The notes beneath the pieces are model-generated. The model ran no database searches and was not told the DNA's origin. It saw only the letters and a program-made list of their open reading frames with translations. This document shows, in pieces, positions 18,179 through 22,772 of a DNA stretch of 64,000 bases. Made by a program: the position numbers and the translations under genes. This DNA comes from Promethearchaeota archaeon (GTDB lineage: Archaea; Asgardarchaeota; Lokiarchaeia; Sigyniarchaeales; SOKP01): contig JBHLOI010000009.1 of assembly GCA_048940645.1 (NCBI GenBank), positions 25,449-89,448 of the forward strand, written 5' to 3'. Numbering within the stretch: position 1 is the first letter of the stretch; each line of letters begins with the position of its first letter.

Positions 18179-18691
18179 ATGGAAAAAAAACCAGTATCTG
18201 AATCTAAAGTTGAAATTGCCCAAGTGATGTATCCAGAACATGCAAATCCCGCTGGGAATGTTCATGGAGGGCATATTCTCAAATTAATAGATCAAGCAGG
18301 AGCTATTGTGGCTGCTCGGCATACGCATAAAAATGTCGTAACAGCGAGCGTTGATAGTATGTCATTTATATCTCCAGCATATGTGGGAAATTTAGTATTC
18401 GCGAAAGCATCGCTAAATTATGTTGGTAGAACTTCTATGGAAGTAGGAGTCAGGGTTGAAGCAGAATGTTTAAAGACAGGTAGACATACGCATATTGCAT
18501 CAGCTTATCTAACTTTCGTAGCTTTAAATCAAGAAGATAATCCCATTCCAATCCCTCGACTCATAACCGAAACTGAAGAAGAAAAAAGACGTCATGAGGA
18601 GGCAAAAAAAAGGAGAGAAAATAGGATGACAAAAAGAAAAGCGCATAAACAACCCCAAGAACCTTGTATAGTAAGACCTGAAAAGTTATAG
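18179..18691 (+). CDS. Hotdog-fold acyl-CoA thioesterase (YciA-like)
   Basis: HANPAGNVHGG, VTASVD, VGRTSMEVGV. Confidence 0.93.
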   Translation: MEKKPVSESKVEIAQVMYPEHANPAGNVHGGHILKLIDQAGAIVAARHTHKNVVTASVDSMSFISPAYVGNLVFAKASLNYVGRTSMEVGVRVEAECLKTGRHTHIASAYLTFVALNQEDNPIPIPRLITETEEEKRRHEEAKKRRENRMTKRKAHKQPQEPCIVRPEKL

Positions 18692-18849
18692 AAACTTGAA
18701 AAACCTCTATCCACATATTTTTAATTTTTAATATAAAATTCTCTCTTCGACAAGAAAATTGACTCCAAACCTTTTTAAAATAATTTACATATTTTATATT
18801 TTATATAATTTTGTCTAATCCAATAATAAGTTTTTACTGGTGAGAATAT

Positions 18850-20892
18850 TTGAAAAGAAAATTCATTTATTTATTTTTAATATTCATTCTCTCTCTTAAT
18901 ATGACCCTTATTTTTCCTAATAACACTATGAATGAACCTTTTACAAATTCTAACATACCAGAAGAAGGGGTATTTCGATTATCTTCGATAAACGAATGGG
19001 ATTCTGATGGAAAAGAAATATGTACAGCAGTTTATAATCAAACAAATCCTCAAATATGCTATGATGGGGCAGGGGGTGCTATTATTATATGGGAAGATTT
19101 AAGAAATCCGGTTACACAGAAGGATATCTATGCTCAAAAAATTGATTCAAATGGAAATAAGTTATGGGACAATAATGGAGAAGCTGTATGTACGTCAATT
19201 ACATCTCAAATAAATCCTCAAATTTGTAGTGATGGAAATGGAGGAGCAATTATAACATGGCAGGATTTTAGAAGTGCCACTGATTTCGATATTTATACTC
19301 AAAGCATCGATTCCAATGGAAATATAAAATGGAATATTAATTGTATTCCCATTTGCACTTCGGAAAATAACCAATATGCTCCCCAAATTTGCATTGATGG
19401 AGTCGGGGGCGCTATTATAACATGGTATGATAATAGAAGTGGTGACTTTGATATTTATGCTCAACGAATTGATATCGATGGAAATATAAAATGGAATCCT
19501 AATGGTACTTTAATTTGTACAGAGATAAATGACCAATCATTACCTCAGATTTGCAGTGATGAAAACGGAGGAGCAATTATTACATGGCAAGATTATAGAA
19601 ATGGTGTTCCTGCATTTGCTGATATATATTCTCAAAAAATAAATTCAACTGGAGAAGTGAAATGGACTATTAATGGAGAAGCTATATGCACAGAGAATGG
19701 AGTTCAAGCTAATGCTCAATTATGTAGTGATAAAACTGGAGGGGCAATTATTACCTGGCAGGATTTTAGGAATTTTGCAGATTATGATATTTATGTTCAA
19801 AGGGTTAATTCTACAGGTAGTGTGAAATGGGTTATTGAGGGGTTAACTATCTGTGCTGCAAGTGATGACCAAGAGAATCCAAAGTTATGCACAGATGGAA
19901 TTGGAGGTGCTATAATTACATGGGAAGATTATAGAGATGGTATAGATTATGATCTATATGCCCAAATGGCTAATTCCAACGGAAATATTACATGGATACC
20001 TAATGGGGTAGTCATTTGCACCATAGCCAATGATCAAACTAATCCTCAAATTTGTAGTGATGGAGGTGGAGGTGCTATTATAACATGGCAAGATTATAGA
20101 AGCGCTATAAACTATGATATTTACTCTCAGCGAGTAAATACTAACGGGAATATGACATGGACTGAAAATGGTGCTCCTATATGTACTTCAAACAATGATC
20201 AAAAAAACCCTCAAATTTGTGTCGATGGAACTGGAGGAGCAATTATTAGTTGGCAAGATTACAGATATGGATCAGATTACGATATTTTCGCTCAAAATAT
20301 AAAGAATGAAGCACCATTTAGTATTTGGGATTTCTTAATAGAATATGGTTTATATATTGGTATCGGTATAGCTTTACTTGCTCTTATTACTGCTATTGCT
20401 CTTCGAAGGAAATCAATAAAAGGGAGGAGACTCCGTGTATTTATTAGTCATGCTGTGGCTGATTTTGAGGTATATAAAATTAAAGAAATAGCTGAATATT
20501 TAGAGAAACAAAAGGAAATATCCGATGTATATTATTGTGAAGAGGATCTTGTAGGTAATATTGATGATTGGATGAAGAGGACTGTACCTCGTTGTCAACT
20601 TTTAATCTTTTTTTCCTCCGATAATTCTTTAAAATCAAGAGATTGTATGAATGAATTAAAACTAGCACGAAAATATAATATTCAAATCACCCCAATTTTA
20701 GGAACTAATCTAAGATGGGAAGATCTAGAAGGACTAAATATTAACAGAGAACTTGGAATGGTATACGATCCAGCTGAATTTGATAAGTTTCGCAAGGATC
20801 TGAATAACTATGTCTTAAAATTTAAAGAAGACTTAGAAAAAGAAATCCTTGAAAAAAAAGAAGGAAGGAAAGAGAAGAAAATGAAAACCTAA
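18850..20892 (+). CDS. Single-pass receptor-like protein: signal peptide, 8 beta-propeller-like repeats, TM helix, cytoplasmic TIR domain
   Basis: Eight ~55-aa repeats (ICT-x4-Q-x2-PQIC-x-DG-x-GGAIITWQD-x-R...DIYAQ); TM GLYIGIGIALLALITAIAL then RRK; TIR VFISHA ... SRDCMNEL-x2-A ... ITPI. Confidence 0.88.
   Translation: MKRKFIYLFLIFILSLNMTLIFPNNTMNEPFTNSNIPEEGVFRLSSINEWDSDGKEICTAVYNQTNPQICYDGAGGAIIIWEDLRNPVTQKDIYAQKIDSNGNKLWDNNGEAVCTSITSQINPQICSDGNGGAIITWQDFRSATDFDIYTQSIDSNGNIKWNINCIPICTSENNQYAPQICIDGVGGAIITWYDNRSGDFDIYAQRIDIDGNIKWNPNGTLICTEINDQSLPQICSDENGGAIITWQDYRNGVPAFADIYSQKINSTGEVKWTINGEAICTENGVQANAQLCSDKTGGAIITWQDFRNFADYDIYVQRVNSTGSVKWVIEGLTICAASDDQENPKLCTDGIGGAIITWEDYRDGIDYDLYAQMANSNGNITWIPNGVVICTIANDQTNPQICSDGGGGAIITWQDYRSAINYDIYSQRVNTNGNMTWTENGAPICTSNNDQKNPQICVDGTGGAIISWQDYRYGSDYDIFAQNIKNEAPFSIWDFLIEYGLYIGIGIALLALITAIALRRKSIKGRRLRVFISHAVADFEVYKIKEIAEYLEKQKEISDVYYCEEDLVGNIDDWMKRTVPRCQLLIFFSSDNSLKSRDCMNELKLARKYNIQITPILGTNLRWEDLEGLNINRELGMVYDPAEFDKFRKDLNNYVLKFKEDLEKEILEKKEGRKEKKMKT
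18997..20300 (+). repeat. Intragenic tandem repeat, 8 x about 165 bp
   Basis: GGAII motif occurs eight times at ~55-aa spacing. Confidence 0.85.
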
Positions 20893-21044: not shown

Positions 21045-22772
21045 TTAAAAAATACCTGCATCTTTGAGAATTTTCTTATGATCAAATGCTAAGTCCATAG
21101 TTCTAATCTTATCAATTGGGATTGTTTCAGCTGAAACTGCATCATCTCCACCTGCCATTCTTGAAAGATCTCGTACAAGGCGACATTTGAATGCTGTCGA
21201 TACGATTTTACCTCGGGGATCACGTCCTTTCTGATCATATACTCCAATCTTATCAATAATTTCTACGACAAGATTAGTCTCTTCTCTAACTTCTCTGATT
21301 ATTGCTTGTTCAGGATCTTCGTTATATTTAATAAAACCACCGGGGAGTGCATACTTTCCTTTAAAAGGGGCATACTTTCTTTTAATTAATATTATATTTT
21401 GATTATCATCTTGAATAACCGCATCAGCTGTATATCCATATTCCGAGGACTTGGATTTTATTCTGCTATAAATAAAATATCCTATTGTTATAATTAAGAA
21501 AATTCCCAAAATTACCGAAATAATTAAATGCATTAATACAGATCCAGGGTCTAAAGCACTTACGCTTGAAGCAATTCTAATTGCATTTACATAATCTATT
21601 ATAAATCCTGCACCTAATATGACTTGTAAGTAATATAAAGCTTTTTTAGTTCTTTTTTGGATTGCTTCGCTCCTTTTAATATATAATTCCTGCATTGAAT
21701 CATAAAGCATTTTGAATTTTTCATTTGTTCTATTAATAATTACTTCCAAACGGAATTTTCTTATCAAATGCGTTAAAACTCTTGTATAATGTTGACGTGG
21801 GTTCCAATCTAATTCACTATAGATAAGACTCATCTTCGTTTGAATCATCCCCCTTAAAAACCTAAGATTCTTAGTTTTCTCCTCGATCTTTTGTAAACTC
21901 ATAAATACGTCGGAATAGCGTTTCATAAATAAAACGTCAAGTGAATTATTGATTGACATTAAAGCGAAAAGAACAGCCCTCATCTTAGGGGTAGGTTCTA
22001 AGATATGGTCTTTTATATATGGAAACTCTGTTTCATAATTTCTTTCTACCATATAAATGAATCCAGAATTTCTTTTAATATAGTGTAATTCAGATAAGCG
22101 ATTAGATAGATTTTTTTTAACTCTTCTTTCAAAATAGTTCTCGCTATAATCACCCCATTGACCTGCATATACCTGAGTCCAATATCCGAGAGCCTCCTTA
22201 TATCTATCTATACTTTCCTCATTCCATTGAACTTCCATAGGTAGGGTTTTATTAGAGATAACGAAAACGTATATCGGACTTTCTGTATCAAGAAGAAGGA
22301 ACTGATTTTCTCTCTTTTTTCCAAATTTTTTAAGGATATCAATCGTTATAAAGGGAATCTGTTGAATCAAGTCCGATGTAATTTTTTCTTTCTTATATGG
22401 CTCATTTTTATAGTATTCGACTTCTAACTTGAAATAACCAAGTGTATTATAGACTAAATCTCTATTATCTTCAGTATACGGGTTATTTTCATCAGTATAA
22501 GGGAAATTTTGAAAAAATGGCTCCCAATCGCACTCAATTGAAATAGAATTGGCCATTTCCCTCAATATCTGCTTTTTTTCTTCAGCATAAGGATATTTTT
22601 CTAAATATATAAATGCTTTCTTAAGATCATTTTCATTTAGGTTTTTTAATCTCTCCAATAAAAGAGCTTCTATTTCTTCTGCCTTAGTTTCTCCAATGAA
22701 CTCGTTTGTATTAATAAACGCACTAATATACCAGAATTCTTTTGCATAAACAAACCGTAACTTTTCTTCCAT
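21045..22772 (-). CDS. CorA/RMD1-like two-TM membrane protein fused to a C-terminal ADP-ribose-type Nudix hydrolase
   Basis: Large soluble N-domain, long amphipathic stalk into two TMs, then TADAVI..LIKR..PFKG-x-YALPGGF, Nudix box G-x5-E-x7-REVREE, RDPR and LAFDH (COG1051/NrtR-type). Confidence 0.8.
   Translation of the reverse strand: MEEKLRFVYAKEFWYISAFINTNEFIGETKAEEIEALLLERLKNLNENDLKKAFIYLEKYPYAEEKKQILREMANSISIECDWEPFFQNFPYTDENNPYTEDNRDLVYNTLGYFKLEVEYYKNEPYKKEKITSDLIQQIPFITIDILKKFGKKRENQFLLLDTESPIYVFVISNKTLPMEVQWNEESIDRYKEALGYWTQVYAGQWGDYSENYFERRVKKNLSNRLSELHYIKRNSGFIYMVERNYETEFPYIKDHILEPTPKMRAVLFALMSINNSLDVLFMKRYSDVFMSLQKIEEKTKNLRFLRGMIQTKMSLIYSELDWNPRQHYTRVLTHLIRKFRLEVIINRTNEKFKMLYDSMQELYIKRSEAIQKRTKKALYYLQVILGAGFIIDYVNAIRIASSVSALDPGSVLMHLIISVILGIFLIITIGYFIYSRIKSKSSEYGYTADAVIQDDNQNIILIKRKYAPFKGKYALPGGFIKYNEDPEQAIIREVREETNLVVEIIDKIGVYDQKGRDPRGKIVSTAFKCRLVRDLSRMAGGDDAVSAETIPIDKIRTMDLAFDHKKILKDAGIF

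Follow-up and report, generated by a model that had tools for sequence, protein, structure and literature searches.

An archaeal membrane protein joining a beta-propeller ectodomain to a predicted cytoplasmic TIR domain, with evidence for exchange of its outer module

Toll/interleukin-1 receptor (TIR) domains are common to bacterial anti-phage systems, plant NLRs, SARM1 and the Toll-like receptors (TLRs) of animals, and the well-studied prokaryotic TIR proteins sense intracellular events. The locus considered here raises the question whether an archaeon can place such a domain under a sensor on its surface and, if it does, whether the resulting protein has anything to do with the origin of TLRs. 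We analyzed a stretch of 64,000 nucleotides from a Promethearchaeota archaeon (assembly GCA_048940645.1, contig JBHLOI010000009.1, positions 25,449 to 89,448 of the forward strand), referred to below as the window, in whose coordinates positions are given unless another locus is named. A single open reading frame of 680 amino acids (aa) with a TTG start occupies 18850..20892 of the plus strand, and a first-pass annotation, made from the sequence alone, had proposed that it encodes a receptor of TLR-like layout. We conclude that the product is a real and well-supported membrane protein in which a beta-propeller, one transmembrane (TM) helix and a TIR domain follow each other, that its enzymatic function is predicted, and that it is not evidence for TLR ancestry.

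The fusion of propeller, TM helix and TIR domain is not an assembly chimera, since the frame, called from an internal ATG, is present on four separately assembled contigs from four sequencing runs. The public protein record of the gene starts at this ATG (codon 18, M18) and has 663 aa, a choice of the gene caller that would remove the signal peptide. The TTG at 18850 is supported as the better start because the GGTGAG element and the TATA-like TTTATATAA lie upstream of it, an N-terminal MKRK followed by a hydrophobic core is gained, and orthologous genes in relatives begin with TTG or GTG and continue with a K-rich hydrophobic N-terminus.

The first-pass annotation had staked its reading in advance on two points, namely that the C-terminal domain scores as TIR and that it lies inside the cell. 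As to the former, the protein belongs to the TIR superfamily (TIR_2), with all testable features of the domain in place. The Pfam model TIR_2 (PF13676) matches the whole protein at 34.1 bits and aa 490-680 at 37.0 bits, above the gathering cut-off of 28, and it matches 101 of 119 family members. An AlphaFold2 (AF2) model of the TM helix, the TIR domain and the tail (predicted local distance difference test, pLDDT, 93.7) contains one long helix spanning the TM and juxtamembrane parts, then a beta/alpha domain of five strands and, at the end, a helix of 39 residues. Structural comparison by VIA gave Z 15.4 against the TIR of SPARTA TIR-APAZ (2.0 Å over 127 residues), followed by plant RPV1/RUN1 (14.4-14.7), SARM1 (14.3), Hydra TRR-2 (13.9), AbTir (13.6) and MyD88 (12.8); dozens of solved TIR domains fall at Z 12-15, and Foldseek matched the MyD88 TIR at E 2.5e-5. 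Because these Z values are nearly tied, the fold is that of a TIR domain and does not decide which kind of TIR it is.

The glutamate that the annotation had noticed in the S-x-x-C-x-x-E-L helix is indeed kept. In the alignment of the 119 members, Ser596 and Glu602 are invariant, and the 24 closest members also have His534, Glu564, Asp572, Asp598 and Trp623 without exception. E602 sits on the helix that leads from model strand 95-100 to strand 123-128 and aligns with the Glu of Cat1, the best solved match by sequence profile (E 0.0034), and with that of the W-C-x-x-E-L motif of TLR2. A glutamate at this position is needed for the NADase activity of bacterial, archaeal, plant and SARM1 TIRs (PMC7075850).

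The part of the protein preceding the membrane segment consists of repeats so regular that their period is visible in the DNA (Tandem Repeats Finder, 162 nt = 54 aa). The repeat anchor GGAI occurs at aa 75, 131, 186, 240, 297, 352, 407 and 462, and each repeat carries the motifs I-C-T...P-Q-I/L-C, W-x-D-x-R and D-I/L-Y/F; the initial description of eight regular ~55-aa repeats with two cysteines each was accurate (16 Cys in the eight repeats, with C165 in addition). The AF2 model of the ectodomain, built from an 82-sequence alignment (pLDDT 93.5, predicted template modelling score 0.91), contains 32 strands in eight four-stranded blades, and an exhaustive structural comparison of model residues 21-460 gave Z 29-31 against 8-bladed WD40 propellers, the 8-bladed matches being TBLR1, Rsa4, Fbw7, Cdc4 and the designed Ika8. 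From the eight times four strands and these Z values it follows that the propeller is closed and has eight blades, which is the outcome that the AlphaFold check proposed for it was meant to reveal. The suggestion of a lectin-like propeller fared worse. Foldseek returned the lectins CV39L and PLL among many other propellers, the exhaustive aligner ranked 8-bladed WD40s, CylK and BamB above the lectins, and TolB was also among the matches; these are generic propeller matches, from which a specific functional relative did not emerge, and we rejected the lectin reading. A PDB sequence search with the single protein found nothing significant for either the propeller or the TIR domain, and a search with the ectodomain profile likewise found nothing.

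By sequence, the ectodomain is related to the NCBIfam model TIGR04275 (beta_prop_Msarc), which matches four repeat stretches, and remains below the NCBI membership threshold (44.8 bits against a cut-off of 85). The propeller has more than 6,800 homologues, and its identity to the more than 80 that were aligned is 39-53%. Its blade motif (W-x-D-x-R / D-I-Y-A-Q) is that of an unnamed family of beta-propeller repeat proteins, surface-anchored or secreted, in bacteria and Asgard archaea, from which the protein differs in carrying a TIR domain and in a second cysteine per blade that is Asgard-specific. The nearest relatives (51-53% identity) are Asgard proteins, and those checked at full length share with it a signal, the propeller and a C-terminal TM anchor, which in them is followed by a short basic tail and no TIR domain; such anchored, TIR-less propellers are a likely kind of donor for the outer module. 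Apart from the record of this protein itself, none of the 120 best propeller homologues carries a TIR domain, and in its own genome the propeller is present once only.

The two cysteines of each blade had been taken for disulfide pairs, to be confirmed with AlphaFold, and here the comparison points the other way. Of the homologous blades, about 80% have the first (I-C-T) and about 10% the second (Q-I-C), in whose place V, I, A or T are usual. Besides scattered blades in three other sequences, the second cysteine is confined to this protein and its four closest relatives; the three of these four that could be checked are all Asgard, two by name and all three by their anchored layout. In the model, the first cysteine ends a 4-residue strand, and the second stands at the seventh place of the 8-residue strand that follows. 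A disulfide within the repeat looks unlikely, as a hairpin of these strands would put the two cysteines at opposite ends. In the simplest reading, the second cysteine replaces another residue at a buried position, as a small hydrophobic side chain, and is common to all blades of the Asgard lineage.

With respect to topology, the single TM helix and the positive-inside charge reported in the first pass were both recovered, as a hydrophobic stretch at aa ~497-518 followed by RRKSIKGRR. Lysine and arginine make up 20% of the C-terminal part and 5% of the ectodomain. All propeller homologues that were checked are secreted or surface-anchored, the bacterial ones bearing type IX secretion system sorting, FlgD-Ig or dockerin tails. 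The charge distribution, the signal-like N-terminus and the contexts of the homologues support a propeller outside and a TIR domain inside the cell. The second of the two points named in advance, the cytoplasmic side of the TIR domain, is therefore answered by the charge and by the extracellular context of the propeller family, and the overall layout of ectodomain, one TM helix and cytoplasmic TIR domain is what hydropathy, charge and propeller context predict. The ectodomain contains seven N-x-S/T sequons and the cytoplasmic part none; since composition leads one to expect ~6.5, this count adds nothing to the topology evidence. With high confidence, we predict a type I membrane topology for this Asgard protein, with the propeller held by a ~10-aa linker to the membrane; the TIR domain begins ~10 aa inside the cell.

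How this protein was put together can be read from its closest relatives, in which the locus forms a conserved block: orf145, OsmC, 4HBT, the receptor-TIR gene, Nudix and an amino-acid permease. The flanking proteins are 88-95% identical among these relatives and 90-95% in the closest genome (L022). The TIR domain of L022 is only 70% identical, and its ectodomain is a WD40/PQQ propeller without similarity to the one studied here. At the DNA level (blastn), the sequence is homologous to L022 (88.6%) as far as position 18688, three bases short of the 4HBT stop codon, and again from 20415-20417 onwards, at codon 522, within the basic stretch that links the TM helix to the TIR domain. In this second part L022 matches at 78%, while L044 and L020 match at 84% and into the Nudix gene. 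As homology breaks at 18688 and resumes at codon 522, the intergenic region, signal, propeller and TM helix were replaced as one block. This comparison shows the TIR domain to be the constant part and the outer module to be the variable part, exchanged by recombination at this locus, and the receptor reading gains support from an outer module that is swapped as a cassette on a conserved TIR domain. Replacement of the sensor between strains fits an arms race with viruses or recognition of other cells, and does not decide between the two. The slot varies in gene number as well: in some genomes it holds two tandem receptor-TIR genes, one of the WD40 type and one of the LVIVD type, and a third TIR gene lies between OsmC and 4HBT.

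Within the genus, the TIR subfamily is found in 15 of the 16 sampled genomes, and among the matches listed no other lies in a 682-aa open frame. Two same-genus copies of the receptor-TIR gene (G065:C4:19633-20085 and G113:C80:10937-11383) contain an in-frame stop (TAA or TAG), which suggests pseudogenes or turnover at the variable slot.

The exchangeable layout is best seen against the TIR subfamily as a whole. A search with aa 520-680 against 1.84 billion representative proteins returned 652 proteins at E ≤ 1e-3, of which 219 were at E ≤ 1e-10; the family is small and well separated, as only these 652 were found in a collection of that size. All named members are Asgard (Promethearchaeota, Hodarchaeota, Heimdallarchaeota and Helarchaeota). 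Of 201 sampled genomes of the phylum, 40 belong to the window's own family and three to a sister family of the same order; the subfamily occurs in 24 and two of these (26 of 43), and in one of the 158 genomes of the other 25 families. A genome has up to 14 matches. A scan for related loci with the single protein found only seven close ones.

Hydropathy and Pfam divide the members into three classes. Most are soluble proteins with leucine-rich repeats (LRR) and a TIR domain; a crude LRR pattern puts at least 60 of the 119 in this class, and so does Pfam for ten of the ten tested. Receptor-type members have a signal, a large ectodomain, one TM helix, a basic stretch and the TIR domain, and their ectodomains are unrelated to each other: WD40/PQQ (P0124), SBBP with TSP3 (P0125), SBBP/GH43-like (P0181), MG2 (P0165), LVIVD with TSP3 (P0127, P0176, P0182 and P0159) and the repeat studied here. 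The closest TIR domains (58-72% identity) stand behind WD40/PQQ, SBBP+TSP3 and LVIVD+TSP3 ectodomains, and more distant membrane-tethered members have LVIVD, SBBP and MG2 ectodomains. The third class combines three to eight TM helices with the TIR domain. A quick maximum-likelihood tree of 124 TIR domains (136 columns, rooted on a distant TIR of the same genome) groups 31 membrane-tethered TIRs (Shimodaira-Hasegawa-like approximate likelihood ratio test, 86), with an inner clade of 19 at 99; the group is nested among the LRR-TIRs and the ectodomain types are intermixed inside it. In a tree this short, only the starred branch is reliable. Proteins P0130-P0145, a sister clade of the receptor TIRs, have three to eight TM helices in front of the same TIR domain and conserve a juxtamembrane F-F-E-L-G-K-R-F-K-R-G; their membrane part matches no Pfam family.

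A full-text literature search found no published description of Asgard propeller-TM-TIR or LRR-TIR families, and a survey of Asgard defence names TIR only inside system names (PMC11291487). What is new here is the exchangeable surface module, the cassette boundaries at the DNA level and the nesting within the LRR-TIRs; TIR-domain sensors as such are known. The features of the locus are collected in Table 1.

Table 1. Features of the receptor-TIR gene and its surroundings, in window coordinates
Feature	Position	Strand	Basis or remark
TATA-like box TTTATATAA	18800..18808	+	Read from the sequence; putative function
Shine-Dalgarno-like GGTGAG	18839..18844	+	5-nt spacer before TTG (18850)
N-terminal signal (peptide or anchor), aa 1-24: MKRK, then hydrophobic core	18850..18921	+	Hydropathy (Kyte-Doolittle) highest at aa 4-23
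Eight-bladed beta-propeller ectodomain, aa 55-484, eight ~55-aa repeats	19012..20301	+	Repeats, AF2 model, structural matches
Single TM helix, aa ~495-519, with GxxxG-like GLYIGIGIA	20332..20406	+	Hydropathy; modelled as continuous with the juxtamembrane helix
Basic stop-transfer RRKSIKGRRLR, aa 519-529	20404..20436	+	Sequence
Swapped cassette (intergenic + signal + propeller + TM)	18689..20414	+	No blastn homology to the same slot in the closest relatives
TIR domain, aa 527-640	20428..20769	+	Pfam TIR_2, AF2, structural matches
Glu602 codon, in S-x-D-C-x-x-E-L	20653..20655	+	Invariant in 119/119 family members
Long K/E-rich C-terminal helix continuing alpha-E, aa 641-680	20770..20889	+	Model helix 152-190; kept in relatives
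Nudix protein, 575 aa, N-domain + C-terminal ADP-ribose-type Nudix	21045..22772	-	Convergent, 152 bp away; possible partner
Second ectodomain/TM/TIR gene, 1404 aa	26483..30697	+	5.6 kb downstream of the studied gene; separate gene

As to what the protein does, we lean modestly towards an exchangeable surface sensor that would control a cytoplasmic, NAD-cleaving TIR domain. The propeller would bind a target at the cell surface, which might be a virus, another cell or a polymer of the surface; this would alter how receptors cluster in the membrane and bring TIR domains together; and, once assembled, these would start to cleave NAD+, like other TIRs in which this glutamate is kept. NAD+ could then be depleted, with arrested growth or abortive infection as the result, or an ADP-ribose-type signal could be made, which the neighbouring Nudix protein may read or remove. 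A complex prediction with two copies of the TIR domain and tail, run without controls, scored 0.00 against a mark of 0.42 and speaks neither for nor against their binding.

Several observations weigh against this proposal. The Trp of the W-x-x-x-E motif, which we take to be important in plant, AbTir and Cat1 TIRs, is present in Cat1, TLR2 and plant proteins and is here Asp598 (codon at 20641..20643), invariant in the 24 closest members, and for this reason the substrate, the product or the chemistry may differ from those of known NADase TIRs. The conserved glutamate alone is no proof of catalysis, because TIRs of the TLR1/2/6/10 type keep it too and are regarded as non-enzymatic in animal biology (PMC11249213). 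The immediate neighbours, namely the OsmC-like protein, the 4HBT thioesterase and the amino-acid permease, are non-defence genes, and no defence model of PADLOC (PADLOC-DB v2) matches the protein. The association with the Nudix gene is also not general: in G104, a Nudix gene of 75% identity has no TIR gene within about 9 kb, in a Nudix clade of ~50% identity a TIR gene is nearby in none of 11 loci, and more distant family members have no conserved neighbour.

In an alternative reading, the Nudix gene forms with the receptor-TIR gene a two-gene module reminiscent of Thoeris, the TIR domain making a signal derived from ADP-ribose and the Nudix protein serving as its reader, effector or off-switch. 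This alternative is tentative, and the evidence on it is mixed. The neighbour matches Pfam NUDIX at 66.9 bits, and its best NCBIfam matches, the Nudix half of NadM-Nudix and the ADP-ribose-responsive regulator NrtR, favour the module in that they are of the ADP-ribose-binding type; products of NAD cleavage are substrates of Nudix proteins. Further in its favour, the adjacency recurs in various arrangements. Nudix orthologues with at least 70% identity adjoin TIR genes convergently in the window and at L020/G077, G065, G121, L005, L019 and L022; at G113 the two genes are co-directional; and at L024 (4278..8486), in a related Promethearchaeota genome, the Nudix gene is divergent from a short Ig-like/TM/TIR gene, with the quinolinate synthase gene NadA directly downstream on the same strand, an arrangement that ties the Nudix family to NAD metabolism. 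In another family (G165:C17), a 32%-identical Nudix gene has TIR genes on both sides. Two further Nudix cases are on short contigs. Against the module, the adjacency lies mostly within the block that also keeps OsmC, 4HBT and the permease, so that much of it is explained by shared ancestry. The G104 gene and the 11 loci without a TIR gene count here as well, Helarchaeota-type and other distant receptor-TIRs have no Nudix neighbour, and the two genes do not form one transcript in the window, since they are convergent. Taken together, a functional link between TIR and Nudix is plausible but facultative, possible rather than probable. Adjoining two of the Helarchaeota receptor-TIR genes we noticed small HTH_34 (PadR-like winged-helix) genes (L011 5414..5656 and L013 10588..10920), which may be coincidence.

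The main rival of the sensor reading is that the protein serves in surface adhesion or recognition, for instance of partner cells rather than in defence against viruses, with the TIR domain as a non-enzymatic scaffold that, as in animal TLRs, would recruit the other TIR proteins of the cell through TIR-TIR contacts. Those proteins are diverse. Five TIR genes, including the one studied, were found in the genome. The second such gene in the window encodes a protein with a signal, a NosD-type beta-helix, a type I periplasmic-binding (ANF-receptor-like) domain, Ig-like repeats, a TM helix, RRKKRRR, a TIR domain and a tail of ~250 aa; it matches TIR_2 at 44 bits, and its TIR lies outside the core of the P0001 subfamily, both in the tree and by its score of 78.8 bits to A2, our alignment of the studied TIR subfamily. 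Contig C55 (L001 283..3332, plus strand; G000:C55) encodes a 552-aa protein that joins a Ras/Roc-like small GTPase to a TIR domain at its C-terminus; this TIR matches PADLOC ThsB at 59.6 bits, and the gene of a large TPR protein comes next. A 449-aa LRR-TIR of the same subfamily as the studied protein (277.7 bits to A2) is encoded on contig C46 (L018 4037..8863, minus strand; G000:C46), directly downstream of the gene of a 1147-aa CHAT (caspase-like) protease on the same strand; the two could be a pair from a conflict system. Another LRR-TIR is found on contig C28.

A scaffold would agree with these five genes and their very different partners (GTPase-TIR, two LRR-TIRs, a periplasmic-binding-protein TM-TIR and the studied one), with the subfamily counts per genome in relatives, such as a signalling network would show, with weak profile matches to the TIRs of TLR1/2/6/10, which have the same Glu without known catalysis, and with the position of the locus outside any defence island. 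We nevertheless consider it unlikely. The invariant E602 and S596, together with H534, E564, D572 and D598, form a pattern that one meets more often in active sites than in contact surfaces; the closest structures (SPARTA, plant, SARM1) are enzymatic, even though scaffold TIRs are within 2 Z units of them; and no adaptor of the death-domain type was found, albeit in a search whose control did not work.

Going further than the sensor reading itself, one may imagine a complete outside-in pathway in which exchangeable propellers would sense viruses or partner cells and cluster the membrane-proximal TIR domain, which would make a signal derived from NAD, and the Nudix protein would read or end it. 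We regard this full scheme as improbable; were it true, there would be transmembrane TIR signalling in the closest prokaryotic relatives of eukaryotes, built from a TIR subfamily that also yielded many cytoplasmic LRR-TIR sensors. The constant cytoplasmic TIR domain with its swapped outer module already points to sensing at the surface, with pressure to diversify, among the archaea nearest to eukaryotes. The ectodomain, TM helix and TIR domain, possibly with the Nudix protein, also make a small system for asking whether clustering in the membrane alone activates a TIR enzyme.

Compared with known systems, the TIR domain is alike in fold and in TIR_2 membership to the enzymatic TIRs of SPARTA, AbTir, Cat1, ThsB, RUN1/RPV1 and SARM1. 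The defence, plant and SARM1 proteins are cytosolic and triggered by nucleic acid, a nucleotide signal or NTPase oligomerisation, whereas the studied domain sits next to the membrane under a propeller; and where the enzymatic TIRs have the Trp of W-x-x-x-E, the studied subfamily has an invariant Asp. By model matches and neighbours, the protein is not Thoeris, SPARTA, CBASS or Pycsar. Neither ThsB_TIR (PF08937) nor the PADLOC ThsB model matches it, the adjacent genes are 4HBT and Nudix rather than ThsA, and no ThsA, Argonaute or CRISPR partner was found nearby. Among catalogued defence genes, Rst 2TM_1TM_TIR, which likewise has a TM-anchored TIR, resembles the studied protein in outline; the latter matches no PADLOC model, and its neighbour bears a Nudix domain. 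To our knowledge, bacterial 1TM-TIR proteins have no large ectodomain. The statement of the first-pass annotation that prokaryotic TIRs are mostly cytosolic is a fair one, with the proviso that membrane-associated TIR genes are already in defence catalogues and are listed for Asgard genomes (2TM_1TM_TIR, DefenseFinder; PMC11291487).

With the animal TLR and IL-1R families, the protein shares the order of parts and the predicted topology, namely a repeat ectodomain outside, one TM helix and a TIR domain inside, and its fold resembles the animal TIRs MyD88, MAL and Hydra TRR-2 at Z 12.8-13.9. The ectodomains differ, being LRR in TLRs and Ig in IL-1R and here an 8-bladed propeller without any LRR or Ig match in Pfam. 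Box 2 (RDxxPG) and Box 3 (FW) (PMC7075850) are not retained: the BB-loop reads C-E-E-D-L-x-G-N-I-D, a loose echo of Box 2 (EEDLVGN), and alpha-E starts as P-x-E-F-x-x-F, without FW. The eukaryote-type TIR model PF01582 does not match the protein at E ≤ 1 and matches 10 of the 119 members, and the profile matches to the TIRs of TLR1/2/6/10 (E 0.08-0.44) are not significant. TLR systems have adaptors, and no adaptor set was found here; a search of the protein's own genome for death-domain adaptors gave no match, and its control likewise matched nowhere. A direct, ancestor-like relationship to animal Toll-like or IL-1 receptors is very improbable, given that the shared layout, the marginal TLR profile matches and the LRR fusions of most subfamily members, which would speak for it, are set against TLRs being a metazoan innovation, LRR-TIRs that lack a TM helix and a signal, membrane-tethered members that lack LRRs (no tested member combines both), and the deviations in PF01582 and the two boxes just described. 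TLR membership is not supported, and the protein is TLR-like in layout only. The bearing on the origin of TLR signalling that was suggested at first is accordingly not supported, while the convergence that the same annotation had allowed for becomes the better reading, because the ectodomain is not LRR, Box 2, Box 3 and PF01582 are missing, and the subfamily is confined, in the genomes sampled, to essentially one archaeal order. The locus thereby provides a testable case of receptor-TIR layouts that arise by domain shuffling, here in convergence with TLRs.

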